From positions 277,974 through 341,973 of the forward strand of contig BCKZ01000018.1 of assembly GCA_001600815.1 (NCBI GenBank): DNA of 64,000 bases. Reading direction: 5' to 3'. The stretch comes from Alloascoidea hylecoeti (lineage: Eukaryota). The notes under the pieces are model-generated. The model was not told the origin of the DNA. It did not search any database and saw nothing but the letters and a program-made list of their open reading frames with translations. Each line of letters begins with the position of its first letter. The first letter of the stretch is position 1. Below, in pieces: positions 24,592 to 46,135 of this stretch. The translations under genes and the position numbers were made by a program.

Positions 24592-26087
24592 ATGGGGAGC
24601 ATTACATCTTCACAAACTAATGAGAGTGCCCTAGTATTGAAATCCAGCCCTCCGACTCCGGAGTCCAGGGCCAAATTGATTCAGTTTATCAAAGCAAATC
24701 TGTTGAATTATAACCTCCTGATAAACCCCGGAGGACCAAATTTGGTATATAACGAGACTTCTGAGGTAAATCTTTTTAGCTATACTCCACAATGCGTCAC
24801 TTATACTAATCATCGTATTCTATTCTAGCAATTATGTGCTGCCTATTCTGTTGGAGCAACAGCTCAAGAACTACAATCATTATATACCGCTCGATTCACA
24901 AAATTAACGGAAATTAGTGAATATGATCTATATGAAGCGACAGAAGATGATTGGAAGGAAACTTTTGGAGATCAATCAAAATCCAGGGCATATAGAGATT
25001 ATTTTGCTGATAAAGTTGCTGAGTATTTCTACAAATGGAGAGAAGTGACAAACAGATATTATATTACAGAAACGAAACAGAAACAACATGACTGGTTATT
25101 CAGAGGTTTACTATCAGGGAGTAAGTGAAATTGTTGTTTATTTTAGAAACTTCTTATTCTAATATAACACGCTTATAGATGGTGATTCTATTGTTTCTTT
25201 AGTGGTATGTCCTCTTGTTTAGAGACCAATTTAAAATAATAATAACCTAATTTCTAGAATGCCTATGAAATCGACAACTTTGAATTGGCTGTTCAGTGTA
25301 AGTGACGTTCACAATTGGTCTTTTTATTACAAACCTTCTGATACTAATATCTAATAGCATTGAGTTTAAGTGCAATTGTGACACCTGAATTCCCATCGTA
25401 CGCCACGTTTGACGAAAGATCGAAAACAGTGACAGAAAAACTCCTAGATCCTAGCCAAATATTACAAAATGTTGTAAATGATGAGGCTATAAAGTCTCTG
25501 AATGAGGATGATTCATCTTTAGAAGATTTACTGTTAGGATATTCTCTTCAATTGGAGTTTAAAGGTATGTTTATTTATTTATTTCAAATGTATAACTTTC
25601 TAATTAACATTGATTTGGTAAAGATGAACTTAAAATCTTGAAGTCATTGATAGAATTGACTTTCATTATTTATGTAGAAACCTACTCAACGAAGTCTTCA
25701 GATGTTTCTTTATATGTCGATGATTTCGCTAATCTATTCGTTATGTCAGGGGCTGTTTATCGCCTTCTTAATCTTCATAAATTTGGAGCAACAAGAGATC
25801 TCAAAAGACGTTTAATACAAACACTTTGGTTCTTAATTGTAAAAAGAGTTTCACAACACTCTAGAAAATTATTTATCGACATATTACAAGAAAAAATTAA
25901 GCTAGTAACTCATGATCAAAATAAGGTTGACCAGTTATTACATTTTCCAGATACTCCAGTTAATCCGATATACTGGAAAGTTTTGCAATATATAAAATAT
26001 TCACAAGATATAATTGAGAGCCCTGATCAAAGAGAAAGATTGCTTTCAGCAGCAGTGGGTGTAAAAGAGCATTATTTAGAGCATTAG
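24592..26087 (+). CDS. Divergent questin-oxidase-like (DUF4243 / AflY-HypA family) protein, 6 exons
   Basis: Exons 24592-24765, 24829-25120, 25179-25204, 25258-25297, 25358-25564, 25624-26087 splice in frame; AYSVGATAQELQSLY, WKETFGD..AYRDYF, LFRGLLSG..NAYE resemble the family. Confidence 0.6.
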
Positions 26088-26109
26088 AAATTATATATAA
26101 TGAACATAT

Positions 26110-28293
26110 TTATGTATACATATGACCTAAATTGAATTCACTACTTCGAGAGTCTAACTCCTTCTTTGCCTTCCGTAATAGCAAACGTTGATTGTCCTCC
26201 TTTACTCGTTTCTGCGGCTTACCATCAGCGTCTGCGGCATATCCTCTACCTAGACTCTTTGGTGTTTCTCTTAGAGCGAAACTCTTAGCTATGTGACCAA
26301 GGTGTAAAGTCTTAACATTGAAATATATCCTTTCAGAAGATAAATGTGTTGCGTAAGCTCTAATATGACTAGTGAATGCTCTGAATGCCATATCTTTTAT
26401 ATGTGGATCTTCTAAAATCCATCGTTCTATGTTCAAATGCCATGTTGTAGCATCAACATCCCACTTTTTGCCGAACGCTCCGATTAAAATGTCTTCATAA
26501 TTGGTATTATAGAATCCTTTAGTATGGTATGGTTTAATGTAATCTAGGTAGCCTTCTTCTTTTCCTGGGAGTAAGAAAAGAAGAGAGGATCCAGACTGAC
26601 CAGCACGAGCTGTTCGTCCAACTCTATGTAAATGATCATCAACAGCAAAAGGAGGGTCATATTCAATAACAGTAGAAATATGAGGCAGATCAAGACCTCT
26701 AGCTGCTACATCAGTACAAAACATTATAGAATGTCTGGGTTGTTCATACTTTTTGCTACCAACAAAAGATGCCAATGTATTAGTTCGATCTTGTTGACTC
26801 AGAGATCCATGCAATTTGTGAATCACAACACCTGGACCAAAAGTAGGAGCAGTTAAAACCGTAAGGCTTCCATTATTTCCAATATCTTTATTTTCATTTG
26901 AGATTAATTTGGGCTTCTTTCCACTCTTCGTAAAAACGCTAAAATGAAAATCAATTGAATCTGAACAGGAACAAAAGACCATTGTCCGTATTGTTCCTTC
27001 ACTCTTAATTGAGACTATATTTTTTAAAACGGCAGAAAGAGTCACAAATCTCAATTTGGGAGGAACAATTACAACTTTTTGTATCAATTGATCAGGAACT
27101 GAAATATTGGTTTCATCATCAAAAGATATAGTTCCACCTGACATAGAATCTGCACTAACCAACTCTGGATTTTCTAAAGAAGTTTCACCCAATTGTTTTA
27201 CGTTACTCTTCATTGTTGCAGAGCAAAGAACTTTCACTTGTCTTTTTGGTAACTTATTGAATTTCGAGGTTGTAGAATGAATTTTGCTTCTATCTTTTAG
27301 CGCTTGTAAAATTTTAGTAATTGTCTCTTCAAATCCCAATTCCATTAATTTATCACCTTCATCTAAAACTACCCATCTGACTTGCGATAAATCTAGCACC
27401 TCAGTATGTTCAATGTGATCACCTAATCTGCCTGGTGTAGCCACTAGAATATTGACACCTTTCCTAAGTCTTGCCTTTTCTGATTTCTTTTTCTCTCCGC
27501 CGATAACTATCCCAGGCACGATATTATTACAACATCTAGTTAATGATTCTAAAACAGAATAAATTTGTGTTGCAAGTTCTCTAGTAGGAGTTAATATAAT
27601 TGCAAAGAGACCAGAAGTTCTGTCTATGTTATCAGCTTCCAACAGTCTATTTACAATGGGTAGAACAAATGTTAAAGTTTTACCAGAACCAGTTTGTGCC
27701 TGTACAAATAAATCCTGATCCCTAACTAATAGACGGGGAATCACGGCTCTTTGAATCTTTGTAGGGGTATTAATTCTTAGTTTACTAGATAAATATTCAC
27801 ATATTTTAGGGTTTAAATCCATTCCAGTAAATGTTGTGGAATCTTTCAATGGGGCATTTGAGGCATCATATTGAATGGTTTCTTTTTCTTCTTCTTTTGT
27901 AATAATAGAAGTATCAGGATTCGAAGAAAAAAGAGATGAAACAAAGGTATCTTTATCTTTCTGTTGGTTTTTGGCAAAATCAGGATTTCTATTAAAAGGT
28001 CTTGTACCATCATTAATCCTCTTTACTCTTCGTTTAGCATAATCTGTATCTGGGTGAGAGGCAGGTCTTTTCCTATCCTGACCTGATTCATTGCTATTTG
28101 ATGCAGAATCTTTATTTATTGAACTTTTATGTCCTCTATCTTCTGTATTTTTTTTCTTTCTCTGGATTCCCAAATTTTTCCTTGAAGATATTTCTACATT
28201 TCTTCTATCCTTCCATCTTCCTCCAGTTACTCTTTTTACCTTTGTAGGAACACTGGAGAAGTCCAAATTTAATGAAAGACCACTGTCACTCAT
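26110..28293 (-). CDS. DBP7: DEAD-box RNA helicase Dbp7 (60S biogenesis)
   Basis: AQTGSGKT, PTRELA, GGEKKKSEKARLRKG, DEGD, SAT, HRVGRTARAG, AFTSHIRAYATH, LHLGHIAKSFALRE. Confidence 0.97.
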   Translation of the reverse strand: MSDSGLSLNLDFSSVPTKVKRVTGGRWKDRRNVEISSRKNLGIQRKKKNTEDRGHKSSINKDSASNSNESGQDRKRPASHPDTDYAKRRVKRINDGTRPFNRNPDFAKNQQKDKDTFVSSLFSSNPDTSIITKEEEKETIQYDASNAPLKDSTTFTGMDLNPKICEYLSSKLRINTPTKIQRAVIPRLLVRDQDLFVQAQTGSGKTLTFVLPIVNRLLEADNIDRTSGLFAIILTPTRELATQIYSVLESLTRCCNNIVPGIVIGGEKKKSEKARLRKGVNILVATPGRLGDHIEHTEVLDLSQVRWVVLDEGDKLMELGFEETITKILQALKDRSKIHSTTSKFNKLPKRQVKVLCSATMKSNVKQLGETSLENPELVSADSMSGGTISFDDETNISVPDQLIQKVVIVPPKLRFVTLSAVLKNIVSIKSEGTIRTMVFCSCSDSIDFHFSVFTKSGKKPKLISNENKDIGNNGSLTVLTAPTFGPGVVIHKLHGSLSQQDRTNTLASFVGSKKYEQPRHSIMFCTDVAARGLDLPHISTVIEYDPPFAVDDHLHRVGRTARAGQSGSSLLFLLPGKEEGYLDYIKPYHTKGFYNTNYEDILIGAFGKKWDVDATTWHLNIERWILEDPHIKDMAFRAFTSHIRAYATHLSSERIYFNVKTLHLGHIAKSFALRETPKSLGRGYAADADGKPQKRVKEDNQRLLLRKAKKELDSRSSEFNLGHMYT

Positions 28294-28383
28294 TGTTTTC
28301 TAAGAAGTTTATAGATTATTGAAGGAAGTGAATGAAGTTAAAGCTCATTAATTATATTTTTTTTTTCAACCTGCATATAAGGT

Positions 28384-28391
28384 GTCACGTG
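28384..28391. promoter_or_regulatory. Cbf1 site in the DBP7/RPC37 divergent promoter
   Basis: GTCACGTG near the middle of a 171-bp intergenic region. Confidence 0.5.
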
Positions 28392-28464
28392 TTATTCTGG
28401 GTGTTGGGTGTAATATGTTTCTTTTTAATTTTTTGAATTATGAATATTGAAACTTACAAAAAAT

Positions 28465-29283
28465 ATGCCTCCAAGAATATCATCACTATTTGTCTCTGAG
28501 GTCTCTGATAATGAAGAAAGAGATGACAATGTCTCAAATGAAAGAATAGAAGACTCAACAGTAGTAAATGAAGAGGTAGAAGAACCACTTGCGAACTTTG
28601 ATGATGATGATGATCCAGTGGTTGATGAGATACCAATATTTCTCAATACAACTTTAAGTGAAGATATTTATATTTTAGAATATCCTGGAAGGTCCTCAAA
28701 AAGACCATATGTGGATATAAACAATTGTGGTATTTTGGATTCTCGTATAAAACCAAAAAGTGGTGTGGTGCAGGTAGATATTCCGATTGATATAGAAAGG
28801 TTTTATGATAAAAAGGAAGGTGAGGCATGGGGAAATTTAGATGTTCAAACTCAAACAGGTGTGATAAACCATTATGATGGAACTCATTACGTTGGTGTTA
28901 TGAATAAAGATGGATTACATATGGCACCAGTGAATGGTGCTGCTTTATTACGGCCGTCGTTTGGGTATATTGACAAAGAATTACATGAAACAAGGGAAAT
29001 CAATCGGACCGTTAATGCTGCTACAGCTGTTAAGAAAGATGTACAGGCTATTCATATGACTGCAAAGTCAAGTAATGATACTGCTCCACGATTAGGAGGT
29101 GCACTGCGGTCGCAAAGGAGGCAGGATGAAGAGGAATTTGTTGGGATGGATTGGTATGATAGAGATGCTACTGAATCATTTGAGAAAGCAAAAAGCCTAT
29201 TAGCAGACAATAATGAGTATGCCGATTTGGGAGTTACCAAGGAAAGTGTTTTACTTAAAATTATGGAAGATAAATGGCTATAA
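28465..29283 (+). CDS. RPC37: RNA polymerase III subunit C37
   Basis: DDDDPVVDEIPIFL, ILEYPGR, RIKPKSGVVQVDIP, LRPSFGYID (Sin_N/RPC5 domain); first ATG 28465. Confidence 0.92.
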   Translation: MPPRISSLFVSEVSDNEERDDNVSNERIEDSTVVNEEVEEPLANFDDDDDPVVDEIPIFLNTTLSEDIYILEYPGRSSKRPYVDINNCGILDSRIKPKSGVVQVDIPIDIERFYDKKEGEAWGNLDVQTQTGVINHYDGTHYVGVMNKDGLHMAPVNGAALLRPSFGYIDKELHETREINRTVNAATAVKKDVQAIHMTAKSSNDTAPRLGGALRSQRRQDEEEFVGMDWYDRDATESFEKAKSLLADNNEYADLGVTKESVLLKIMEDKWL

Positions 29284-29355
29284 TCATTCATATAGATGTA
29301 TACCAGGACTATAGTATATAAGTAGCATTTATCTTTATTCATGTAATTGTATATA

Positions 29356-30374
29356 TTAATCATACCACATTTTAATCAATTCTTCACTGACACCACTTGG
29401 GGTTAAAACCCCAAGATCTGTTATCAAAGCTGTAATATATTCATGTGGTGTAAAATCAAGAATTGGATTATTCTTTAATTCATCTTCAATTATAAGAGAT
29501 TTTGTGCTGAAGTTGTTCAAAAGATTGTTTTTGTTTTCCCCTAAATCATCTGGAGCCAAAGGAAATAATCTTACAAATTTATGAGATTCAGAAACCACAT
29601 AGAAAGGTTTATGAGCATTAGAAGAAAGAACGCCAATTGAATAGGTACCAATGTAATTTATTATACCACCAGTTTCGGCAACACCTTCAGCTCCCATAAA
29701 TACTTTATCGACTTTGTGAATCACACTTCCCACTGCCGAATCGACAATAATAGAGACGGGTATACCATTTTCACGAAGAAGTTTCGTCATTTTGATACCA
29801 TCATTAGACGGTCGAGCCTCTGTACAAATGACCTTAAATCTGATAAACTTTGAAGCAGCATGCAAAAGTAACTTCAGAACAGCTCTAGAATGTGAATGAA
29901 CAAGAATTAGATCATCATCCTTGATAAATGGTAATCCATACTCAGCAATCATATCTCTTGATGCCTTTGATCTTTCCACGAATAGTTTACCATTTTCTAC
30001 TAGATGATTTTTGCATTCCTCCCAGTTACCAGATAAATTATTACGTAGGACGAATCGCATGAATAAATCACATCCTGCTGATAAACTGATTGAGTTTGGA
30101 ACTGATTTCTTCAGTGTATCAGTTGCTTCAGCCAGCAGTTTGATCAATTCGGAAGATGTAGATGCTATACAACTAAATGTCAGGATTTTTCAAATCTTTA
30201 GCTTCTAACTTGTAGTTTCTTACTCTGTTTTACGCTGAGAAGAGTAACGAGTGACTCAATGGCAGCGACAGGCATAGTCATTTCGGGATCTTCTGTTAAG
30301 AACCTCGAATAGGTTGCCGTCACATCAAAGTCTTCTTGCTGTGGCAGTTTCTGGGAGTCTGTCATGTTAGTCAT
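29356..30374 (-). CDS. GCN3: eIF2B alpha subunit, 2 exons (intron 30223-30165); start at 30374 or 30365
   Basis: [66 protein letters not shown]. Confidence 0.97.
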
Positions 30375-30686
30375 TCCGCGAAAAATGGTGAATTTGATGT
30401 GTTAAAAAAGTCTTCCTATGTTAAATTACGTAATCAATGCCCTTTTCTATTGTGTACAGGGCTTTTCTTTTGACATTGACATTGGCTTTGATGCCATAAT
30501 TATCATAATATAATACGTATTATATAGCTTATAATAAGTGGCAGTTTCAGTTCTAGAACCCATCGAAAATGTTATGCTTGATCAGGCCATGCTGTTATGT
30601 ATAAATATTCTGATTACCCCAACCATTAATAAGACATATCCTCTTATTTTTTTCAGCCTTATTAATATTAATAGAGCAAGGAAAAA

Positions 30687-33600
30687 ATGAGTATTAGGAG
30701 TCCCAATAAAGATGCTGACAAACTCCTAAAATTGGTGGTATCTGGTTTTAAACATTTAGATAAAAGTCTTGAAGGGGTCAAAAATAAAAATATTGATTTG
30801 GTAGCATTAGATATAAGAATTGATAATGCAACAATTTATACTTCATACACACTTGTTAAATATGATTCTCAAATCAAACAACTTAGTACTTCTGATGCAA
30901 AGATCGCAATTAAGCTGTTAAAACCAATACAAGGAAAGTTAAGAAAAGCTAGTGAAATTTTAATTGATTTCGATGAGGAGAGTTCACAAATATTAATACC
31001 AAATTTCAAAAGGAATAGCAAAGGGTTTGGTTCCGATATTAATTATAAAGTATCACAGTCAAAATGGTCAATTGCATTCAAGTATCTTTATAACCTAGTA
31101 GATGAAGCAAAAGATAAAAGTGACCGATTCATTGAGTTTATGGAAAAGAAAAATAGCATCGCTGCACCGATTTCGCAACCTGAAACTAAACCACGGAAAA
31201 ATATTATTCCATGGGATGATGATTTTCAAGCAGGATTAATTTTACCATCTAAAAGAAACACCAATTTCTGCGGCAGAACAGCCGTTTTAGAAAAATTAGA
31301 AGAACTATTTGAAATCAAAAGTTCAAAATCTTATAAAAGAAAATCAATTTTATTACAAGGAATATTTGGAATTGGGAAATCTCAAATTTGTATTCAATAT
31401 TCTTATTTAAATCAAACATTCTACGATAGCATTTTATGGATTGATGCTACTGATTTAGAATCCATCAATAAAACCGCAAAACAAACAATAAATGGCATCA
31501 TAAATTATTACTTGTCAAATTCCATTCCCCCAAGAAGTTATAGCGATATTGGGAAAAAGTTTGGAATGCCCAAATTACTGGATAGTCTAGGACGCATAAC
31601 GATTGATAATAAAATAAAAGAAGCTATTAGCCATCATGATAATGCTACCGATATTCCAGAAATGTATATAAAAATTCAACAAAATAATAATTTAATGAAA
31701 GCTATAAGTTATTGGTTATCCCATAGAAAGAATAAAAAATGGCTATTAATCATTAATAATATGGATAAATCAAAGTATCCTAATAAAAACTTAAATCCAA
31801 ACTTAAATCCAAATTTATATGATTTAATTCCTCAATGTGGATGGGGTCATATACTTAGAACAACAACAACAGATGTAAAATCAATTAAAACTGATGATGA
31901 AAAATTTATTTTAAGAATTGCTAGTCCTGAAGATAAAGATAGTCTTGATATATTATTAAAAGCATCAAAAAAATCTATTAATGAATTATCTAACAATGAA
32001 ATTATAAGTGCAAAAAGGATTGTTTCAAAATTAAGAAATCATCCATTATCATTGCAGGTTGCTGGTATTTATATATCGGAAAGTTATTGTTCTTTTACAG
32101 ATTACCGAAGAAAAATATCCAAGACGTCACAGGTTTTATTTAACTATACAATTACATCAGGAAGAGTAGAAACAATTAATAATATGTTTTCAGTTTCTTA
32201 TAATTCATTGAATGATAATGAAAAGACTTTTCTTGATATTTGTGGATTACTTGCAAACCAAACAATACCGAAATTATTAATACAAGAAATTGCAATACAA
32301 TATGATTCTCCTTTACAAAATGATTTAATATATGATAAAACTGTTCAAATACTTGTAAAATATTCATTGATTTTATATTTCCCAGTATCAAAAGTTATAA
32401 GAATTCATCCAATTTTTCATAATTGGCTTTATAATAGGAAGAAAAATTTAATCGATACTACTAAAGACGCAAGTATTATAAAATCAACTATTTGTGCATT
32501 TGTTAAAATTACTTCTGAAAATAATGCTGAGACAATATCATTATTTTATAAAAATAATAATCATATTTCAAAATCAATTGAACATTTTTATTCATTTTTT
32601 GAAAATATTAATCAATCAAATGATAAAGATGATATATTATATCTTGCAAAAAGTTTATACAATAATCTAAATAATCTTTGCAAGTATTATGAAGCCGATA
32701 AACTTTCTGGTTATTTAATTGAAAGATGTGGAGGACCACAGAGCCTTAAAGAAACTAATAATATCAATATCAGAAATAGCATTTACGGTAATGAGCAAAT
32801 CCAATCATTCTATAGTCATGCTATTTTAAAATTATCAATCTATGAGCCACAAAGAGCAATTCAACTATTAGAAAATTGTTTACAATCTCAATCTCATATA
32901 CAAAATGTGATTCCAATTACAAAATCGATATATAATGATAATGATAATCATTCAAAGGATTTTCCAACAAAAATGCATATTCAATTAGCGCTCACAATTG
33001 CATATGGTGAATCAATAAATTTACAAAAATCAATTGAATTATTTAAAGAATCTTTTTTAAATATACAATCTTTAGATACAAATAAAAATTATAGATCAAA
33101 CAATAATTCATCAATTGGTATAATTATTATTGGACTTCAATATTTAGAAGAATTATATTCGAATGATGGCAACCATATCATTATACTTGAAACTCTTTAT
33201 AGTGTTGTTAATAATTATATTGAAATTGCAGGTTATTCAGATTGGTACGCAAGAGTATGCTTAGAGAGATGTTTAAATGAATGCCAAGCAAATTTGACAG
33301 GAGACCATCCTATTTTATTAAAAGTTATGCCAAAATTAGGGACTCTTTATTTTAAAATAGGAGAATATGAAAAAGCTTTACAAGTTTATAATCTCTCATT
33401 AAAAGCAATTGATAACGTTTTTGGTAGATATTGTTTTGAAGCTTTAGATATCGTCGCTTGTATTGTGGAATGTTATGTTAAACTTGGTAATCAAGAGAAA
33501 GCCGATGGCATGTTTGATGATGTTTATGATCGATTTGAACTTACAAGATTACCTGACGATAGAGTTGAATTCTATCTTAGATTAGGCGATCAATACTTTA

Positions 33601-34913
33601 GTAGGGGCAAGTATGATAAAGCAATGGTAATGTATAAATTATATGGAGCGAAAAAAGATACAACTAACCGTCCTGTTATATCCCCAAAAGAACTGGATCG
33701 TGCAAACGATTATCAAAAGATTGGTGAATGGTTAAGACAATCTGGTTCATTTAAAGAATCTCAATCATATTTTAATCAGGCTTCTACTACATTTAGAAAA
33801 AATATGGCAGTCGATCATAAAAGATTCCTTCAATGTAAATATGGTTATGCATGGTGTTCCACAAAAGTTGGCGGAAATCAAGAAGCACATAAGGCATTTG
33901 AACAATGTTATGGTGTATCGAAAATTGTTGAGCCTGAGACTAGCCCCTTTTTAATAGGAAGTATTCATAACCTTGCTCATATTGATTATGTTGAAAAAAA
34001 TTATGATGCGTCTCTTTCAAGATATCAAGAAGGTTATAAATTAGTAAAAAAATTAAACAATGAAAAATATCCACCAAGTGTGTTTCAAATGGGCGTTGCA
34101 AAATCTTTCTTTCATAAAGGAAATTTTAAAGAAGCCCTACATGAATTTAAAGATCTATTATCTTCTTCAAAGAAAAAAAATGGTGAAAACCATAAGTCAA
34201 CACTAAATATTAAACAATTTGTTGGAAAAACATATTATAAAATGAAAGATTATCGTCAATCTATAAAATATTTAAAGGAAGCTGAAGATGGATACGCAAT
34301 GAATAATAAGAATTCTAAATTAAAGAGAAGTGCTGATGAGCTTTGGTGTTTAGCAAATTTAGGTGCTGCTTCGGTTTTCATCAATCCTAATGAAGCAATT
34401 GAAACTCTTAGAAATCTTTTATCTCAAGTAGTGGATAATATGGACGAGATAAAAGATGAAAAACTATTGTGTTATTCATGGCTTGAATTAGGTAGAGCCC
34501 ATTATTTAAAGACGGAATACTATGAAGCTATGAAGTGTCTCAATAATTCATTTGCAGCGGTAGATAATATGGACCCAGATCTTCATATTGAGGTGTTATA
34601 TTTATTTGGCAAGATTTATAGAATATATTTCTTAAAAGACATTGCTTTCAATTGTCTTACTGAAGCTTATACCTTAAGTTTACAAACCAATGGTCCAGAT
34701 CATTTAACAACTAAAGATATTCAACAATACCTTAAACGGACCAATTCTGGTAGAAATAATATAAGCTTGCCCATTCTAAACATATTAGAAGAGAAAGGAG
34801 GTAAAGTGACCATTTTGGAAGCAGATGTCTATGACTTATTAGAAACTGCAACTCTCGTTGATATTCCAGAAGTTACTCCGATTTCCCAAACACCTATGCA
34901 GGTAGCCATATAG
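30687..34913 (+). CDS. NLR-like STAND protein: HeLo-like N-terminal domain, NB-ARC-type NTPase, TPR repeats
   Basis: PSKRNTNFCGR, Walker A GIFGIGKS, SILWIDA, Walker B-like WLLIINNMD, GHILRTTT, HPLSLQVAGIYI, IRIHP; C-terminal TPRs with GDHP/GENH/GPDH spacers. Confidence 0.9.
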   Translation: MSIRSPNKDADKLLKLVVSGFKHLDKSLEGVKNKNIDLVALDIRIDNATIYTSYTLVKYDSQIKQLSTSDAKIAIKLLKPIQGKLRKASEILIDFDEESSQILIPNFKRNSKGFGSDINYKVSQSKWSIAFKYLYNLVDEAKDKSDRFIEFMEKKNSIAAPISQPETKPRKNIIPWDDDFQAGLILPSKRNTNFCGRTAVLEKLEELFEIKSSKSYKRKSILLQGIFGIGKSQICIQYSYLNQTFYDSILWIDATDLESINKTAKQTINGIINYYLSNSIPPRSYSDIGKKFGMPKLLDSLGRITIDNKIKEAISHHDNATDIPEMYIKIQQNNNLMKAISYWLSHRKNKKWLLIINNMDKSKYPNKNLNPNLNPNLYDLIPQCGWGHILRTTTTDVKSIKTDDEKFILRIASPEDKDSLDILLKASKKSINELSNNEIISAKRIVSKLRNHPLSLQVAGIYISESYCSFTDYRRKISKTSQVLFNYTITSGRVETINNMFSVSYNSLNDNEKTFLDICGLLANQTIPKLLIQEIAIQYDSPLQNDLIYDKTVQILVKYSLILYFPVSKVIRIHPIFHNWLYNRKKNLIDTTKDASIIKSTICAFVKITSENNAETISLFYKNNNHISKSIEHFYSFFENINQSNDKDDILYLAKSLYNNLNNLCKYYEADKLSGYLIERCGGPQSLKETNNINIRNSIYGNEQIQSFYSHAILKLSIYEPQRAIQLLENCLQSQSHIQNVIPITKSIYNDNDNHSKDFPTKMHIQLALTIAYGESINLQKSIELFKESFLNIQSLDTNKNYRSNNNSSIGIIIIGLQYLEELYSNDGNHIIILETLYSVVNNYIEIAGYSDWYARVCLERCLNECQANLTGDHPILLKVMPKLGTLYFKIGEYEKALQVYNLSLKAIDNVFGRYCFEALDIVACIVECYVKLGNQEKADGMFDDVYDRFELTRLPDDRVEFYLRLGDQYFSRGKYDKAMVMYKLYGAKKDTTNRPVISPKELDRANDYQKIGEWLRQSGSFKESQSYFNQASTTFRKNMAVDHKRFLQCKYGYAWCSTKVGGNQEAHKAFEQCYGVSKIVEPETSPFLIGSIHNLAHIDYVEKNYDASLSRYQEGYKLVKKLNNEKYPPSVFQMGVAKSFFHKGNFKEALHEFKDLLSSSKKKNGENHKSTLNIKQFVGKTYYKMKDYRQSIKYLKEAEDGYAMNNKNSKLKRSADELWCLANLGAASVFINPNEAIETLRNLLSQVVDNMDEIKDEKLLCYSWLELGRAHYLKTEYYEAMKCLNNSFAAVDNMDPDLHIEVLYLFGKIYRIYFLKDIAFNCLTEAYTLSLQTNGPDHLTTKDIQQYLKRTNSGRNNISLPILNILEEKGGKVTILEADVYDLLETATLVDIPEVTPISQTPMQVAI

Positions 34914-35929
34914 GGACTTGACTTCTTGTCTTCTTATACTTAAATCTGTTTATAATCTATAAAACCTTTACCCTCAACATTTACACTAACTGAGAAAGCA
35001 ATAAGAGGGATGATGAAAGGATATATTTATTCATTTATTTGTATATTAAAAACAATTACATAGCTGAAACATTAATTCGATCTTTTCATAATTCACATTG
35101 ATATGTTTAATACCAAATTATTAGTTATAACTTATAATTCCTTATAATATGGGCCTTCTAAATAAACAATAATTTCACTCATTAATATAATTAAATTAGG
35201 CACAGTTTTTTTTCAATTAACTGTAGTCATATTGATATTCATCTCATACTTGAATTATATTTTATATATCTAAACTATACGGCAAGCTGACCATACAGTC
35301 AGGAAGAGATCAAGTATACAGGGAAACTTTAAATATCGATTCAGCAGTCAATTTTGAAGAGTTAATTGCAATTCTTTAAGTTGTTTGAAATGATAAAGAT
35401 GTAAATCATATGATTGCAAAAATCTGTTTTTCGATGTGCTACATGATATATTTTTATGGGGCCTATTTTTATTTGTATTCAATTCTTTATAATGTACCAA
35501 TTTTAACAATAACCGAAATTTCTGCAGCTTAATTGATGATGATAAACCAAGTAAAATTGTTGATGATACTTTTGGTATTTTGAAACCTATTCATAAACAA
35601 CGTCCAAATGCTGAACACTTTGTGAAATTCTTTGTTGTTTTACTCCTAATCGATCCCCTCATAAATTAATAACGGCCACTAGTACTTTCAAAAATTTATG
35701 TCAGAACACTCAACCCTCAACTGTGAACGAGAAATTTATTCGCATCATGATAATCCTTATGAGTGAGTACCTAATTCACCTTAATCTTATAAAGATGAAG
35801 TTCACAGGTTTTCAAATCAGCTTCCAAATTTGAGTTTCAAATTTTAGCATCAACCTCCTGGGGTGATCGGAGGTTCGCGTCAAGACTGAAAAATGTTTTT
35901 CGATATGCATATTATACTCATTGGTTCCC

Positions 35930-38062
35930 ATGCTAAGATCTTTCTATAGAGCAATCGCTTTAAATCCAATCGCGTCCCACCAAATAAAACCTCCAATTTT
36001 CAAATCGTTTTCGTCTTCGAGGCATGTGAATGAAGATAGACAATTAGATGAATTAGCTTCAATTTTACTTGATATAAAAGCACCCAGAAAAACTGTTGAT
36101 TCCATTATTCCTCCATATTCTAATGCTAGTTCAACAGTTGAACTAGCTTTCATACATCCAGATTCTCCGAATAAACCCGGTGATGGGGAGACTTCAAAAC
36201 GATACTGGTCAAATATAACACGCAAATTGAAAAGTTTAAACACCTCAGGTAGATATATCGATGTTCTGTCAGCAGCAAATAAACTAAAAGCATTAAATCA
36301 AATTCCACATCCTGAAGTATACTCTGAAATATTTAGTGCAATGCTGAAAATAGGGAGTAATAAATTACATTTGGTAGCACCTACAGCCCTGAAAATAGCG
36401 TATGAAATCAAAGATTTGAAACTACCTATTACGTTTGATAGTTACAACCTTTTATTGCAAATATGTAGTCAAAGTACTGACCCAACACATCTATGGCTTT
36501 TTTTAAAGTATTCTGAGGATCTTCACCTATCTAAACGTTTATATGATTTTCAAATAAAGGCCCAAATGAATCAATATGTTCATGTACCTTATGGACATGG
36601 ACTAGTTTCTGCAGTGGAGTTATATGATGAATATTCAAGAATAGAACAACGAAGGAAAATTAAAAAAAATAATGAGAATGAGGATATAGAACTGACTCGA
36701 AATCTAAGACATGGAAACTTCCTTCAAGCATTTTTACCAAAATTAATTTCTCAAGTTATCAATTATTATAACGATAGTAAGACACCTCTAAGATTATTAA
36801 AAGAAATTCATGACTATGATGTTGATATTCCTGTACATATGTATTCAGAGCTGTTATCAACTGGTCTAGCTAATGGAGATGTTGATCTGATTGGGTATAT
36901 TTATAAAGATGTTGTTAAAGATAAAGGCATGATACAATTGACAGATAGTTTATTGAAGCAAATACTGATATATGCTGGACGTGCTGGTGATAGTGAATGG
37001 GCACTTGAATTATTGAAAAGGTTATCTGACCTTAATCCTAATAATGCTAGAAATCATCACCTTGTTGCAAGCGTAATTGAAGCGTATTGCAATGGTACTA
37101 TAATGACATCAAATCCTGAGGAGGTAGAGACAACAATTCTAGAAATTTGGGGGATCATAAACACTTTCATAACGGAAGGGTCAAATTTATCAATTACAGA
37201 CTTGAATTCTACTGTTGATTTAATGAATAGGATCCATTTACCTATAAATACAGCTAAAAAGATGATAAAACATGCACAAGAACATTTTAATATTAAAACA
37301 ACAGTTTTATTGAAACGAGCTATTGTTCAACACCAAATAACTGCATCATCGTTAAGTTTTGTAATAGAAAAAACTTCACTCATGGTTAGAGAAGGTTATT
37401 TCTCGGGGTTTGGTGACATATTTGATGAAGATTTATGTCATTTACTTTTACAAAGAAGTATAAAGTTTTCAGGAACAAAACTTGTAACATTTAATTTATA
37501 CCTTGAAATGATTCTCAGAGACTTTAAGCTGTCCGAATCAGATTATACTTCACTAATTTGGGTAAATTTAAGGGGTTCTGATATATCTGGGGCATATTTT
37601 TTCTGGTCTGAAATGCTTAAACGCAACATTAAGCTAAGCGGGGAAACACAAAGGGCTTTTCATAGACTATCAACCAAAATAAATGATCCAAGGTTTGCTA
37701 AGATCAACAATTCTGTAAATAAATTCACAAGGAACTTAACCGAACTTGAGGTTGAAAGAATATTTGGACCTTTGGCCAAATATCCATCTAATACTTCAAT
37801 TTCGAACTCTTCATCTAGATATGAGGTCCTTAGATACTCAGCCATTGAAGATTCTAGAACCAGTACAAAATTAATGGGTATCATTACAAGGGACTATACT
37901 GGCGAGGAGAAGGCGATAGCAAGTAAGAACCGAGAAGAATTAAGAATTAAGTTACAACATATTACTGGGGATAGACATCTAAATTCCAGATCACGTCTCT
38001 CGTCGCATATAACTAAGGGTAATCAAAACATTTCATATAGAACCACGAACAGTTATAGTTAA
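35930..38062 (+). CDS. Probable mitochondrial pentatricopeptide-repeat (PPR-like) protein
   Basis: Presequence-like N-terminus; helical repeats such as PHPEVYSEIFSAM, ITFDSYNLLLQIC, SESDYTSLIW..AYFFWSEMLKRNIK. Confidence 0.6.
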   Translation: MLRSFYRAIALNPIASHQIKPPIFKSFSSSRHVNEDRQLDELASILLDIKAPRKTVDSIIPPYSNASSTVELAFIHPDSPNKPGDGETSKRYWSNITRKLKSLNTSGRYIDVLSAANKLKALNQIPHPEVYSEIFSAMLKIGSNKLHLVAPTALKIAYEIKDLKLPITFDSYNLLLQICSQSTDPTHLWLFLKYSEDLHLSKRLYDFQIKAQMNQYVHVPYGHGLVSAVELYDEYSRIEQRRKIKKNNENEDIELTRNLRHGNFLQAFLPKLISQVINYYNDSKTPLRLLKEIHDYDVDIPVHMYSELLSTGLANGDVDLIGYIYKDVVKDKGMIQLTDSLLKQILIYAGRAGDSEWALELLKRLSDLNPNNARNHHLVASVIEAYCNGTIMTSNPEEVETTILEIWGIINTFITEGSNLSITDLNSTVDLMNRIHLPINTAKKMIKHAQEHFNIKTTVLLKRAIVQHQITASSLSFVIEKTSLMVREGYFSGFGDIFDEDLCHLLLQRSIKFSGTKLVTFNLYLEMILRDFKLSESDYTSLIWVNLRGSDISGAYFFWSEMLKRNIKLSGETQRAFHRLSTKINDPRFAKINNSVNKFTRNLTELEVERIFGPLAKYPSNTSISNSSSRYEVLRYSAIEDSRTSTKLMGIITRDYTGEEKAIASKNREELRIKLQHITGDRHLNSRSRLSSHITKGNQNISYRTTNSYS

Positions 38063-38554
38063 TCCTTCAGGAAGGATAGATTCCAATTACAATAAGAAAA
38101 AGAAGTTTAGAAATTCTATAATTCTATAATATTTATATAAAAAGTTGTAAAATGGATGATCAAATAACGATATCAAAAAAGGTGATACATAGAGTGTTGT
38201 AAATTTAATTGCCAAAATTGTGTTTTCATATCCTAATTTATTGAATATATACAAAGGAAAGGATGCTATTTAAGTAGCTATAGCTAGTAAATTATCGGTG
38301 ATTGAGGCTAATAAATCTGGATCTATGAGGTATACAAAAAAGATGACATAAAGTTCATATCCAGATTCTTATGGAATTGGACCAATTGAACACTAGAAAA
38401 AGTTATAGTTAACGTCAAGAGGTATAAATATTTATGGTTTAAAATTTAATACACAAAATACATACCTATAATCGTTTGATTACAACACTATAGACACATG
38501 TTAAATACGTATAATTATATATTAGGTAGTAGTTATTAATTATATTAATACTAA

Positions 38555-41500
38555 TTAACTATAATCCTCATCTGATTCTGAACCAAGATATTGAGCATAA
38601 TCATCAGCAGATGCAAAGACAGGTAATTCTTTAAGTTTCTGTTTCTTTGATTTAGATTTCTTTTTAGCTTCACCTTCATTTGTATCGAAAAAGTCAAGTG
38701 CACGTTTTCTTTTTCCAGTTTTGTTTCCAGTCTCTGTTTCAGATTCAGATTCAGAATCAGATCCATCCGAAAGTACATCCAATTCAATATCTGAGTCATC
38801 ACTAATTTCATCTTCTGGATCTCCAAGAAGTTCATTAATACCTTCTTCATCTTCATCTTCATCATCATCATCATCCACTTCAATTTTAGTTTCAGCAGAC
38901 TCTTCAACGGTATCATCCTCAGGACTACTATCATTCAATTCTACCAGATCATCGGAATCAAACCCTTCATCAATATCAGAATCAAGGTCATTTAAATCCA
39001 CATCACCTTCAATGGTAGGTGCACTCTTTACCAAAGCATCCCAAACTTCTTCTTCATCCAAATCACTTCCTTCTCCTTCATCTTTTATTTTTGGACGAGA
39101 CTCACCAGATTGTTTTGAAGCAAAATATTTATAAAAAAATTGTTCATCAACTTTTACATCTTTTAATTTTTTCGAAGACCAATCTTCAGCATTTATTGGT
39201 TTAATATTTAATTTATCAGATTTAATACCCTTAGATATAAGACCAAGTCCACCATTAGTAACAGGAGCACCAGATAAAGGTTGCATAATAGATATACCTC
39301 TTGAAGCTTGTTTTTTCTTTGGATTTTTATAAACAAAACGATCAAGGAAATGTTGTAAAGAAAGTAAACTCATATCTGGTTGTGTTATTTGAGATTTATT
39401 TTTATTTTCATTGTCATTATCATCATTGTTGTTATTGTGTTTTTTACTATTATTATCTTGTTCTGTATTTTCTTCAATACCTCTAGCATAAAGCTCAATT
39501 GATGGATGAAAATGATTTTGTAACAAAGTCATTTCCCATAATGATGTTAATTCAGCATGTGCATATTTTGGATCTCTTTTACGACCATCATATGAAATAA
39601 TTTTTGATTCTTCTTTTTCATTATTATTACGAATAATTTTATTCCCATCATCATCGACATCATTAAATACTTCATCATCTGAATCATTATTATTATCATC
39701 ATCGCCAGGTATTAATTCAACACCAAACATTGATTTAATTTGAGGGAAAAATGAACTTAATCTATAAATTAAAAATAACATTCCAGTAACTGGACCAATA
39801 TTAATCCATGATGCTGAAATTTGAGAAATTCTTTTAATAAATGCAAGTACTCTATTAATATTTGAATCTGATTTTAAAGATTTAAATAAAATATTTAAAT
39901 AAATTGAAAGTTTTGAACTTGATTCTAATCTTGGATCTAATAAACTTTCATATAAAGTTTTATAAAATCTATCAGATTGAATTGAATCATTTGAATCAGT
40001 TATTAATAAACTTAAGAATTTTAATGCTTGTATACTTGTATTTAAATTACTTGAATGAGTAATTCTATATAAAGTATTAACTTTATCATTAAATTTATCT
40101 TTTGGTAAATCAGAAAATGGAAATGAACGATTAAGACCAGTTAAAATTGCAGAAATTAATTTATTATCCATTTCTTCTTGAACTGTTTCTGCATCTTTTG
40201 GTAATAATTTTTGTTTTTGTTTATTTTTTTGTGACCATCTATTTTTTTTACCATTTATTTTATTTTTATTATTTTTCTTTTCTATTGATTCATTTGATAA
40301 ATTTCTTTTTGAATCTAATTCAATTAAAATTTTTTCAAATAATGAAAAATAAACTTTAACAAGTTCATTTGCTAATTCTTGTTCTTTAACTGTTAAAATT
40401 GTTTGATTTAAAGTAACAATTGAAAAATAACGACTATGATAATCAATACCACTTCTAAATAAAAAATCTGCAATATTTTTAATTATAATTGATTTCATTA
40501 ATGGATGTTTTTGTTCTAATTTTAATAAATAAAATGATGTTCTTGATCCAACTTTTGTATCAATATCACCAAGTTTATTAATTCCAAGTCGTAATAAATT
40601 TAATTCTTCTTCAGGATTTGCTGATAATAAATCAAAAATATGTTTAACGGCACTTAATCTAATATGTTCAATTGCATCATGAGACATTACTTCTAAATTT
40701 TGTAAAAATTCAAAATAAAATTTTTTTAAATAATCTTCAAAAGCCCATAAAATTAATTCATCATCTTTTGCATTAATATGTAAATAAGGTTGATCTTTAA
40801 ACCATCTTAATTTTCGATTTGGTAATATACCACCAGTTCCATTCCCATCACCAACTAATAAATCTTTTAAAATATTTGAACCTTGTAAAGCACTTGTTTT
40901 TGATTTTTTTTTTGTAATTGAAAATAATGAATCAATTGATTTCATATTATGTAATGGAGATTCTTGAATTAATAAAGCTAATGCAGCAACTTTATCACTT
41001 AATGTACCACTTGTAATAATTTCTGAAAAAAATTTCTTTTGTGATGTTGATTTACCAAATTCATTATAATAAGATTGATTTTCTTGTTCTAATAATTCAT
41101 TTGCTTTTGTTTGAAGTCTCTTTATTTGAAAATCTACAATTGATATTGAATCTTTTGTAATTGGTGGAATTGATGGATTCATTAAAGCATCACTATCATA
41201 CCAATCACTTCTTGGTGGAACATAAAATTGATCATAAGAGAATTTTCCGGAACGAGTAATTGTTAAATCATCTTTGGTAACTTTAAAATTTGGTTTTTTA
41301 ATTTCAATTTTATTTTCAATTTTATTTTCAATTTTATTTTCATCTATTTTTTTTTTATTTTCAAATTCTTTTTTCTTTTCAGATTTCTCTTCTTTTATAG
41401 ATTCTTTTTTCTTTTCCTTTTTCTCTTCGAATTCCTTTTTCTTTTCAGATTTCTTTTCTTTTTTGGATTCTTTTTTCTGCTTAGAAACTTCCTTCTTTTG

Positions 41501-42103
41501 TGATTTTCTAGAGATCAACTTTTCAATCTCAGCTTCTTCATCAGAATCATCATCTCCATCATTCCCACTAATTCCAGATTTATCACCACGTAAACCAATT
41601 TTATTCATATATTTCGAAATATCATTTAATAAAGATTTATCAGAAGTTTTATCATCATTACCAAAGTCTTGAACAGAACCTTCATTATCAGAATTTAAAT
41701 CATCCAACATATCAACATCATCTTTAGAAGCGCCCAAATTTTCAGCTTCTTTTAATAATTTTGATTTGGAACTATCAGAATCAACGGATTTAGAAGAATT
41801 TTTTTTTTTAGATTTTGAATGAGATTCATCTTCTTTAGAAGTTTCAATATTTTTACTTTTTTTACTTTCTTTTTTCTTTTCATTCTTTGATTTCTTATCT
41901 TTTTTGTCTTTTTTGTCCTTTTTGTCTTTTTTAGTCTTCGTTTCTTTCTTCTCCTTTGGATTCTCCTTTGGATTCTCATCCTTCTTGGATTTAGTTTTCT
42001 TCACCTTCCCATTAGAATCATCGAGCAACCTTTGATTTACCTTTTCGGACAGAGAAGATAAATCCAGACCTTTGATTCCAGAAGGAATGCCAATATCGGT
42101 CAT
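38555..42103 (-). CDS. MAK21: Ribosome biogenesis protein Mak21/Noc1 (CBF/Mak21 family)
   Basis: SGTLSDKVAALALLIQESP, YDGRKRDPKY, HFHPS, FLDRFVYKNPK, LPVFASADDYAQYL; first ATG 42103. Confidence 0.96.
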   Translation of the reverse strand: MTDIGIPSGIKGLDLSSLSEKVNQRLLDDSNGKVKKTKSKKDENPKENPKEKKETKTKKDKKDKKDKKDKKSKNEKKKESKKSKNIETSKEDESHSKSKKKNSSKSVDSDSSKSKLLKEAENLGASKDDVDMLDDLNSDNEGSVQDFGNDDKTSDKSLLNDISKYMNKIGLRGDKSGISGNDGDDDSDEEAEIEKLISRKSQKKEVSKQKKESKKEKKSEKKKEFEEKKEKKKESIKEEKSEKKKEFENKKKIDENKIENKIENKIEIKKPNFKVTKDDLTITRSGKFSYDQFYVPPRSDWYDSDALMNPSIPPITKDSISIVDFQIKRLQTKANELLEQENQSYYNEFGKSTSQKKFFSEIITSGTLSDKVAALALLIQESPLHNMKSIDSLFSITKKKSKTSALQGSNILKDLLVGDGNGTGGILPNRKLRWFKDQPYLHINAKDDELILWAFEDYLKKFYFEFLQNLEVMSHDAIEHIRLSAVKHIFDLLSANPEEELNLLRLGINKLGDIDTKVGSRTSFYLLKLEQKHPLMKSIIIKNIADFLFRSGIDYHSRYFSIVTLNQTILTVKEQELANELVKVYFSLFEKILIELDSKRNLSNESIEKKNNKNKINGKKNRWSQKNKQKQKLLPKDAETVQEEMDNKLISAILTGLNRSFPFSDLPKDKFNDKVNTLYRITHSSNLNTSIQALKFLSLLITDSNDSIQSDRFYKTLYESLLDPRLESSSKLSIYLNILFKSLKSDSNINRVLAFIKRISQISASWINIGPVTGMLFLIYRLSSFFPQIKSMFGVELIPGDDDNNNDSDDEVFNDVDDDGNKIIRNNNEKEESKIISYDGRKRDPKYAHAELTSLWEMTLLQNHFHPSIELYARGIEENTEQDNNSKKHNNNNDDNDNENKNKSQITQPDMSLLSLQHFLDRFVYKNPKKKQASRGISIMQPLSGAPVTNGGLGLISKGIKSDKLNIKPINAEDWSSKKLKDVKVDEQFFYKYFASKQSGESRPKIKDEGEGSDLDEEEVWDALVKSAPTIEGDVDLNDLDSDIDEGFDSDDLVELNDSSPEDDTVEESAETKIEVDDDDDEDEDEEGINELLGDPEDEISDDSDIELDVLSDGSDSESESETETGNKTGKRKRALDFFDTNEGEAKKKSKSKKQKLKELPVFASADDYAQYLGSESDEDYS

Positions 42104-42133
42104 TATTCTGTACAATAGTTGAAATCTAAAGAT

Positions 42134-42162
42134 AATTTTTCAAGTAACATAAATTTTTTTCA
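42134..42162 (-). promoter_or_regulatory. Two RRPE-like elements upstream of MAK21
   Basis: TGAAAAATT (42142-42134) and TGAAAAAAATTT (42162-42151) on the minus strand, ahead of a ribosome-biogenesis gene. Confidence 0.55.
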
Positions 42163-42744
42163 CTTTTGGGATGGGGAGGCCGGGTAATGGCAGCATCGGG
42201 AGGGAGGGGTGTGTGGATGTTGAGTGGCACTAATCAGCTGGAAAGTGGAATAAACGAAGCAATCAATCCGTTGGTCTGAGTTGATATAATGATATCTAAT
42301 TGGATTTTTGTAGGTATTTGTGCTTTGCTGTATTTGGAGTTTTGAGAGGTTATTAACAGGGAGACAGACGTGCCTGCTGGCGTTGGTGTGTGGGACCATT
42401 CTCTACAAAATGTACCTGTGGGCCATAGCTCCGTTTCTATCCCTCCAGGTCCCCCTCCGGACCCTCCGAGTCTTCCAACGCGACGGAATACGGCTGCCAG
42501 AAGACGGCCAAGACGACCCGAGCGATCACGACATCGAGACTGGTGTTTGAACAAATGAAACTACGCGGAAACAGCAGTAATTAGTCTTAGTTAGTAAATT
42601 ATAATAACGTGTATGTTATAATATTTTTGTGTTCTCCTCTGCCACCCTCGAAATATTTAGTCCTCCAAACGTCATTCACCACCATCCTTCATTCTCCACC
42701 CAAAACCTCCAACTTCTACTTTTATCCATTCTGCTTGCCTAAAC

Positions 42745-45700: not shown

Positions 45701-46135
45701 ATTTTAAATAAGAATACTGGTAGTTTGACAAATTCAGAATTATCAACCCCATCACCATTTCAATCTCAAGATTCAAATCTTCATAGAACATTATCAGCAT
45801 CAAGTAGTAGTTTCACTAAAAATCATAATATGAAGAATCATAGTCCTGGTAATGGTAATGGTAATAGTGATAATAATGGTAATGGAGTTGGTACTCATAA
45901 AAAACGACATTTTGTATCACGATCAATTTCACTTTCACAACCTTCTAATCATGATCATTTATATGGATTTGGTGGTCATAATAAAGATAATAAAGATAAA
46001 AAAGAAAAGGAAAAAGAAAATATTAAACATGATTCAGAATTATTATCAAAAAATTCAAAAAATTTAAAAAAAGATAGTAGAGAAAAAACTCATAAAAAAA
46101 GTTTATTAAGTTTTGGATTTTCAAAGAAATCATAA
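42745..46135 (+). CDS. UBP9: Ubiquitin-specific protease Ubp9/Ubp13 (CreB/USP12 family), 2 exons (42745-42777, 42833-46135)
   Basis: Exon 1 MALKRWISLSS, intron GTACGT..CACTAAC..CAG, in frame with the TTG-started ORF; Cys box FGMENFAATCYCNSILQ, HQDAHEF, His box HIGGGPYHGHYVS. Confidence 0.9.

Follow-up and report, generated by a model that had tools for sequence, protein, structure and literature searches.

An NLR-architecture gene of the fungal NB-ARC-TPR family, native to a budding-yeast chromosome

Do budding yeasts carry NOD-like receptors (NLRs; NOD, nucleotide-binding oligomerization domain), which published surveys report as missing from them? The question is raised by one gene, at positions 30687 to 34913 on the plus strand of a 64,000-nucleotide stretch of DNA deposited under Alloascoidea hylecoeti (contig BCKZ01000018.1; hereafter the window). 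The answer favored here is that this is a native Saccharomycotina gene, encoding a tripartite protein of the STAND class (signal transduction ATPases with numerous domains) that belongs to the fungal NB-ARC-TPR family, has NLR architecture, and would probably act as a switch gated by its tetratricopeptide repeats (TPRs).

The published position is stated in passages of several surveys. Dyrka et al. 2014 (PMC4986451) report there 0 NLR matches in 38 Saccharomycotina genomes, and use the absence to tie NLRs to multicellularity. Corresponding passages of Uehling 2017 (PMC5658179), of two articles from 2022 (PMC9119436 and PMC9815663), of one from 2023 that cites an 882-strain update (PMC10197012), and of one from 2025 (PMC12881547) repeat that NLRs are absent from yeasts or Saccharomycotina. 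An earlier reading of this locus, made from the sequence only, had described the surveys in this way, and these passages agree with it. A full-text literature search on NLR, NB-ARC, or NACHT proteins in Saccharomycotina, yeast, and Lipomyces listed no paper reporting a budding-yeast NLR, the supplementary tables of the surveys lying outside its scope. A budding yeast that has a native, intact gene of NB-ARC-TPR type is a counter-example to the reported absence, and the family must have either reached the Saccharomycotina or survived in them.

Is the gene intact? It runs for 1408 codons from ATG to TAG, needs no intron, and has no internal stop under translation table 11 or table 1, just as the sequence-only reading had it. 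By our estimate about 8% of random codons would be stops in DNA of 28% guanine plus cytosine (GC), so an open frame of this length cannot be a chance product. The start codon agrees with two database proteins, P0019 (274 amino acids) and P0020 (423 amino acids), which come from NCBI or Logan contigs, share the N-terminal domain, and begin at the same Met-Ser. One polypeptide holds three parts: an N-terminal domain (residues 1 to about 160), a NOD (186 to about 620), and a TPR array (about 834-1365). This is the layout of effector-position domain, NB-ARC, and TPR that had been proposed for it. Searches of the window by tblastn with its own protein (P0001), P0019, and P0020 found no second copy.

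Is it a yeast gene? The neighboring genes belong to the Pfam families DEAD/CTE_SPB4, RPC5, IF-2B, CBF/Mak21, UCH, COQ7, IPK, tRNA U5-methyltransferase, Ras, WAPL, and Nibrin BRCT domain. RPC5 is the family of Rpc37 and IF-2B that of GCN3, and the best named relatives of the DEAD plus CTE_SPB4 protein are DBP7, which confirms the claim of ordinary yeast neighbors (DBP7, RPC37, GCN3, MAK21). Among the 120 best relatives of the DEAD-box neighbor (the window's own copy included), all those named by organism are Saccharomycotina, many of them named DBP7, from Wickerhamomyces, Cyberlindnera, Babjeviella, Pachysolen, Komagataella, Trichomonascus, and other genera. None of these named relatives exceeds 56% identity. 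The host is therefore a budding yeast to which no named species is close.

The gene itself resembles its surroundings. Its GC content is 0.283, and its GC content at third codon positions (GC3) is 0.175, within the neighbors' range of 0.07-0.29; its codon-usage distance to the pooled neighbors is the smallest among 12 genes; and its protein composition is AT-biased to the same degree as the host's. The earlier claim of host-like base composition is borne out on all of these measures.

The assembly was compared with independent contigs. The locus is present in four runs from three studies: organism A accounts for two runs in one study and one run in a second, and the fourth is a wood-decay metagenome. 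The window's DNA may itself stem from some of these runs. Contigs from three of them, covering all three studies (X1; X3, the wood-decay metagenome; and X4), were compared over region 26000-39000. In X1 a single 6615-nucleotide contig spans 28353-34967, from RPC37 to past the stop codon, with 0 differences. The X4 contigs span 26860-33428 and 33455-39000, and the X3 contigs span 26000-32358 and 32376-38836. Both junctions are bridged at a depth even with the flanks in X1, X3, and X4 (about 23x, 10-12x, and 8-10x). Misassembly and contamination are effectively excluded, in keeping with the earlier judgment that contamination was unlikely; together the neighbors, the host-like codon usage, and the junction-bridging contigs mean that the gene is native to a yeast chromosome.

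What, then, does the center of the protein descend from? An exhaustive phmmer search with residues 1-760, run over 1.84 billion representative proteins, found 3442 matches at E≤1e-3; of these, 408 reached E≤1e-10 and 8 reached E≤1e-30. The best named matches are Rhizina undulata proteins (28-30% identity, E 1e-37 to 1e-30), and the best named relatives overall are NB-ARC-TPR proteins of Pezizomycetes and Orbiliomycetes. When 20 top relatives were themselves scanned with Pfam, nine passed the NB-ARC cutoff and three more were listed below it; HeLo was found in seven, and DUF7779 and TPR_10/TPR_12 in most. A 14-member family profile that includes the yeast protein matches the Protein Data Bank (PDB) structures of AfsR (7.8e-18), ZAR1 (4.3e-9), and Apaf-1 (1.9e-8), as well as those of MLA13, NRC1/2, ADR1, and Roq1.

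Structure prediction points the same way. An AlphaFold2 (AF2) model of residues 172-608 (predicted local distance difference test score [pLDDT] 75.1; predicted template-modeling score [pTM] 0.59) has Apaf-1 as its top Foldseek match (1z6t, E 6.1e-11, TMq 0.54). NRC2, NRC1, ZAR1, CED-4, Sr35, and Roq1 follow among 229 matches at E≤0.001, and the best TM-scores are to closed forms, ADP-bound or resting. From the sequence homology and the fold matches together, the center of the protein (residues 186 to about 620; 31242-32546, plus strand) is an NB-ARC-type NOD, comprising nucleotide-binding, helical, and winged-helix parts. The sequence comparisons show its descent from the same family as the Pezizomycete and Orbiliomycete NB-ARC-TPR NLRs, and the model shows a predicted fold like those of Apaf-1, NRC2, and CED-4. 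Assignment to the STAND/NB-ARC group had been proposed for checking; phmmer, the family profile, and the fold uphold it, despite a direct Pfam score below threshold that is weighed further on.

The NOD carries a full series of motifs, and their conservation was counted over 112 aligned homologs. Before the nucleotide-binding part stands LPSKRNTNFCGR (residues 186-197), which fits the pattern P-x-x-RN-x-x-F-x-GR. The Walker A motif (P-loop) GIFGIGKSQ is intact at residues 225-233, with K231 and S232 (31359-31385, plus strand); GIFGIGKS (225-232) matches the consensus GxxxxGK[ST], and the Lys is present in 112 of the 112 homologs. The WIDA strand, ILWIDAT, occupies residues 249-255. Between it and Walker B lies a helical insertion with an IGKKFGMP...GR motif (31548-31739, plus strand), which part of the family shares in the alignment (P0010, P0022, P0020, P0034, P0037, and P0057) and which forms helices at model residues 86-173 of the AF2 NOD model. 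Next come a Walker B-like strand, WLLIINNMD (residues 352-360; 31740-31766, plus strand), a β strand at model residues 181-186, with N357 in the place of Asp; and the sensor-1 region, GHILRTTTT (31845-31871, plus strand), with T394 in the place of Arg.

Two further motifs follow. The GLPL equivalent is NHPLSLQVAGIY (32037-32072, plus strand), with the core NHPLSL at residues 451-456. The family has LPLAL here (Leu in 90, Pro in 107, Leu in 106, and Ala in 107 of the 112); the yeast protein has HPLSL (452-456), retaining Pro453 and Leu454. The MHD equivalent is RIHPIFHNW (32400-32426, plus strand; RIHPIF at residues 572-577), in which H574 keeps a His found in 93 of the 112 homologs, 14 having gaps. 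These motifs occupy the corresponding motif columns of the family, so that the set read earlier in STAND order (P-x-x-RN-x-x-F-x-GR, Walker A, WIDA, Walker B-like, HPL, and IHP) is present throughout and aligned with it.

A 12-nucleotide tandem repeat of 2.6 copies (31787-31817, plus strand) encodes NLNPNLNPNL in the loop after Walker B. It could be a length-variable site.

The carboxyl-terminal part is repetitive. Residues about 834-1365 (33186-34781, plus strand) form an array of about 12 diverged 42-residue units of TPR_12/TPR_10 type. Pfam TPR_12 (PF13424) scores 107.6 bits over three stretches (cutoff 30.1) and TPR_10 (PF13374) 29.4 bits (cutoff 27.5), so both of the families suggested earlier stand above their gathering cutoffs; the matches to TPR_12, TPR_2, TPR_1, and TPR_10 lie between about residues 834 and 1203. 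Self-comparison of residues 830-1380 has its top peak at a lag of 42 (z 2.6), and the PDB matches of the array are TPR chains of kinesin-light-chain type. These results show, on sequence evidence, a diverged TPR_12/TPR_10 array. The sequence-only reading had described TPR units with GxxH spacers: the units hold, in Pfam and in the 42-residue lag, but the spacers do not, since exact GxxH occurs only twice (GENH at 1166 and GPDH at 1336) and the remaining spacers are degenerate. At the DNA level, repeat searches of the array turned up nothing both long and conserved. Between NOD and array, residues 621-833 (32547-33185, plus strand) form a linker or degenerate helical region that matches no family; Pfam scans and self-comparison gave no match and no clear periodicity there.

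The N-terminal domain, residues 1 to about 160 (30687-31166, plus strand), is predicted by AF2, from a four-sequence alignment, to form a bundle of four long helices (6-31, 36-57, 68-102, and 119-159; pLDDT 67.8, pTM 0.62). Self-matches (the full protein and its fragment P0003) aside, only P0019 and P0020 are significantly related to residues 1-180. The model thus predicts a four-helix bundle outside recognized families, that is, a new N-terminal domain.

HeLo (PF14479) was tried as a candidate and found no support. Pfam gave no HeLo match at E≤10; when N-terminal regions from 55 relatives were searched with a hidden Markov model built on the yeast domain, the lowest E was 0.45; in hhalign, 14 HeLo regions reached E 0.26, within the range of 20 column shuffles (0.04-0.87), and seven HeLo regions reached a probability of 23%. 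The N-terminal effector assignment made earlier is accordingly not borne out, neither HeLo nor another effector family being supported.

Structural comparisons of the bundle are broader. ESM Atlas gave no usable match, and Foldseek gave none at E≤0.001, returning generic helical proteins only. A wide structural search over 48,161 chains ranked in its top 50 the coiled-coil (CC) domain of Rx (Z 12.3), MLKL (9.5 and 9.2), the NRG1.1 CC-R domain (9.0), and MLA13 (7.9), and it also listed Sw-5b (12.1). Such values fall within the background that the method gives for helical bundles, and the model is at most compatible with a head of CC, MLKL, or HeLo-like type.

How does the protein compare with known systems? 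Its closest counterparts are the Pezizomycotina NB-ARC-TPR NLRs, the class surveyed by Dyrka et al. 2014 (PMC4986451). Examples are the HeLo-NB-ARC-DUF7779-TPR_10/12 proteins of Rhizina undulata (KAL7271330.1 and others), RPA74722.1 of Ascobolus immersus, and proteins of Pyronema and Orbilia. The yeast protein shares with them the NOD family (identity 28-31%, with E reaching 1e-37), the order of motifs (including the pre-NOD P-x-x-RN-x-x-F-x-GR, WIDA, and the GLPL-like and MHD-like motifs), and a TPR_12/TPR_10-type carboxyl-terminal array; with the Rhizina subgroup it shares also the helical insertion and its G(I/M)P...GR motif. It differs in its host, a budding yeast; in an N-terminal domain unrelated in sequence to the HeLo, patatin, PNP_UDP, and alpha/beta-hydrolase heads of the relatives; in the replacement of the Walker B Asp and the sensor-1 Arg; in falling below the Pfam thresholds for DUF7779 and NB-ARC; in a linker of about 210 residues, outside known families, before the array; and in more diverged TPR units (TPR_12 at 107.6 bits, versus 176-375 in nine relatives scanned).

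More distant systems share parts of the design. Apaf-1, CED-4, and plant NRC/ZAR1 (1z6t, 3sfz, 8xuo, 6j5t, and 2a5y) have the fold predicted here, a nucleotide-binding domain followed by helical domain 1 and a winged-helix domain (Foldseek E 6e-11 to 1e-8), whereas identity to the modules of Apaf-1, CED-4, and plant CC-type NLRs is only 12-16% and their repeats are WD40 or leucine-rich, rather than TPR. Apaf-1, CED-4, and plant NLRs keep the Walker B acidic residues. The AfsR-type bacterial SARP/NB-ARC/TPR regulators (8k60 and 8jke) share the layout of NB-ARC plus TPR and provide the best profile match to a solved structure (7.8e-18), but they have a DNA-binding head, and the yeast protein has none. 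The bacterial FxSxx_TPR model NF040586 (FxSxx-COOH system) gives 144.9 bits, short of its cutoff of 300, and a branch with support 100/100 separates the bacterial-type clade (Ktedonobacteraceae MBA2679667.1) from all fungal rows of the tree described below. At the N terminus, a predicted bundle of four long helices in the NLR-type position recalls the CC domains of Rx and NRG1, MLKL, and HeLo/HELL heads, with Z values at background level.

Where did the gene come from? A maximum-likelihood tree of 68 rows and 423 columns (LG+C20+F+G4) was rooted on the clade that holds the Ktedonobacteraceae protein, its one named row. P0001, P0019, and P0020 form a yeast-type clade (support 98/96) with end branches of 0.88-1.38, nested in a 38-row clade (97/91) of Pezizomycete and Orbiliomycete proteins plus one Sordariomycete protein: Rhizina, Pyronema, Sphaerosporella, Ascobolus, Orbilia, Arthrobotrys, Dactylellina, and one protein of Lasiosphaeria. 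Outside that clade lie 20 other fungal rows. The nested placement is unreliable, given the long branches and deviant composition of the yeast rows. A constrained tree, in which the 37 Pezizomycotina rows are monophyletic and the yeast clade is their sister, was not rejected by an approximately unbiased (AU) test (delta lnL 3.1, p-AU 0.43); this test used 47 rows, LG+F+G4, and fast searches, and so is weaker than a full mixture-model test.

Two histories are thus possible on the sequence evidence, vertical retention and ancient transfer. Under retention, which may be entertained seriously if short of even chances, NB-ARC-TPR NLRs were already present before Saccharomycotina and Pezizomycotina split, nearly all budding yeasts lost them, and this lineage kept one small family. 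The nearest relatives belong to the Pezizomycotina classes that branched off first, the sister position to the sampled Pezizomycotina rows is statistically allowed, the divergence inside the yeast clade is deep, and the gene is embedded beside the DBP7-RPC37-GCN3 block. On the other side, the yeast clade falls among Pezizomycotina paralogs in the best tree, and retention would then require several ancestral paralogs and many losses.

The transfer history, also tentative and also to be taken seriously, has the gene arriving long ago from an ascomycete of Pezizomycete or Orbiliomycete grade in a wood-decay habitat; the yeast copy could then have diverged and gained its new N-terminal domain, a step put forward just as tentatively. 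The nested position with 20 fungal rows outside speaks for it, as do the finding of the locus in a wood-decay metagenome and a compositional peculiarity: among the 150 best of the 3442 matches, AT-driven composition like that of the window protein occurs only in P0019 and P0020, besides P0003. Transfer is opposed by the tolerated sister placement, by the doubtful nesting of long, compositionally deviant branches, by fully host-like codon usage, and by flanks in which no repeats or mobile-element traces beyond chance-level short matches were found.

Because the branches among the three yeast-type sequences are very long, any transfer would be old, and a recent one is unlikely. Host-like codon usage and the old clade with P0019 and P0020 together show a gene long resident in its lineage. 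Scans of metagenome contigs with the yeast N-terminal domain alignment and with the NOD found no relative. Word-index searches with residues 1-760 returned only a single protein, from Botrytis, when candidates were 774-2464 residues long and, among shorter ones, only the protein's own 170-residue fragment; these searches missed P0019 and P0020 and hence say nothing about distribution.

How might the protein work? In the favored reading of a TPR-gated switch, the array would keep the NOD shut as long as no ligand or modified partner is bound. Once one binds, the NOD, with its P-loop Lys and MHD His kept, would bind ATP and oligomerize, and oligomerization would gather the N-terminal four-helix bundles as output, which could be membrane attack or partner recruitment. 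Judged by P-loop NTPases in general, a NOD in which N357 and T394 replace the conserved Asp and Arg is expected to bind nucleotide but to hydrolyze it poorly; such a NOD would be a slow or one-way switch, not a cycling ATPase. The changed residues offer a natural test of switching without hydrolysis, in a compact, single-copy-like protein with a new N-terminal domain, from a type of organism that usually is easy to manipulate.

Several observations weigh against the favored reading. Pfam NB-ARC (PF00931) reaches 17.7 bits (E 0.0022), below its cutoff of 23.5; even this score appears solely in a scan restricted to residues 172-760, where it covers just the latter half of the profile (positions 132-247), and a Pfam scan of the whole protein does not list it. 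The Walker B Asp is present in 107 of the 112 homologs, and the yeast protein has Asn (N357, LLIIN). The sensor-1 Arg (TTR, or RNBS-B) is present in 93, and the yeast protein has Thr (T394, TTT). The Asn in Walker B marks a divergent descendant of the family, rather than a typical active member. P0020 has Asn in Walker B too, and its P-loop is gone (GNNNISQRQ for GxGGxGKS/T), so this lineage may be losing its ATPase. As for output, sequence and profile searches found no relation of the N-terminal domain to any cell-death or signaling domain, and its structural Z values lie in the background of unrelated helical bundles (IncA 12.5, designed proteins 7-10).

A natural variant bears on the same question. 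Inside the gene, X1 and X4 show 0 differences over the covered parts, and X3 shows one: A>T at 31197 turns codon 171 (31197-31199, plus strand) from AAA (Lys) into TAA (K171*). P0003, a database entry of 170 residues, matches residues 1-170 without a difference and stops precisely where K171* would end the protein; it lies on the same 9203-nucleotide NCBI contig as an identical DBP7. A truncated allele exists in a natural sample, the wood-decay metagenome, its support being one contig at a depth of 9.7 plus P0003, which may derive from the same data. Given this allele, the gene is dispensable in nature, which fits an accessory role in defense or conflict better than a housekeeping one.

The main rival reading starts from these facts and is itself rather unlikely. 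It holds that the protein is a relic or re-purposed NLR, no longer a nucleotide switch, and either near a pseudogene or an ATPase-dead TPR scaffold. It would account for N357 and T394, for the missing P-loop and Walker B Asn of P0020, for the database presence of P0019 and P0020 only as products of 274 and 423 residues, for the nonsense allele, and for the high divergence of the TPR units. Against it, 1408 codons open in DNA of 28% GC imply selection until very recently; the protein still has the Lys and Ser of its P-loop, the Pro-Leu of GLPL, and the His of MHD; the window assembly, X1, and X4 are identical inside the gene over the covered parts; and the short P0019 and P0020 products may be contig ends or gene-calling artifacts. 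Even a decaying relic would document NLR loss in yeasts. Apart from this, P0020 carries extra insertions in its nucleotide-binding domain and may be a pseudogene or an ATPase-dead paralog or ortholog.

With the TPR-gated switch preferred over a relic, what might it be for? An immune or allorecognition role is plausible. The signature of allorecognition proposed earlier, allele diversity in the TPR region, did not appear: X1, X3, and X4 show no hypervariability or other polymorphism there and the array has no conserved repeats, a weak negative from three data sets only. In its fullest form, the proposal would be a yeast NLR kept since the Saccharomycotina-Pezizomycotina ancestor, with TPRs that sense non-self or danger, a previously undescribed bundle that executes or signals regulated cell death, and a one-shot, hydrolysis-impaired switch between them, which would amount to NLR-based immunity or incompatibility in a yeast. 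As a whole, that proposal is improbable.

The weakest alternative, a filamentous-fungal gene joined to yeast DNA by contamination or chimeric assembly, was considered only since the family is reported absent from yeasts, has nothing found in its favor, and is improbable in the extreme, because contigs of X1, X3, and X4 bridge the locus at a depth even with the flanks, GC3 and codon usage equal the neighbors', and the protein is AT-biased in composition like its host.

The immediate surroundings show a compact arrangement. DBP7 (minus strand), RPC37 (plus), and GCN3 (minus) adjoin one another over 26110-30373, genes that presumably lie side by side also in Saccharomyces cerevisiae (YKR024C-YKR026C). 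The short divergent intergenic region shared with GCN3, read from the sequence at 30148-30686, apparently includes on the minus strand the 5' exon of GCN3, followed by a short intron. Taken by itself, the long GCN3 frame begins its Pfam match at position 65 of the IF-2B profile and so misses the 64 positions before it. Upstream of it on the minus strand, within 30148-30400, there seems to be an exon with an ATG near 30373, about 50 codons, and then a short intron (GTAAGA...TAG). With the ATG there, only about 310 bp of divergent promoter precede the NLR-type gene. No RNA run is among those listed for the locus, and a metatranscriptome run, X7, gave only 17-22-letter scraps there, which say nothing for or against expression.

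Other features of the window are minor. Open reading frames at 35930-38062 (plus), 50-2191 (plus), 17355-18587 (minus), and 62668-63438 (plus), of 256-713 amino acids, have no Pfam family at E≤1e-5; among them is the 710-residue frame directly downstream of the NLR-type gene. No tRNA genes were found in the 64-kb window. The MAK21-like and UBP-like genes at 38555-46135 have GC3 of 0.109 and 0.071, versus 0.175-0.288 in the other measured genes, and GC alternates between 23.5% and 39% over 40-46 kb. Finally, two T>C differences, at 37238 and 37577, are common to X3 and X4 and absent from X1, so the X3/X4 genotype differs slightly from that of the window.

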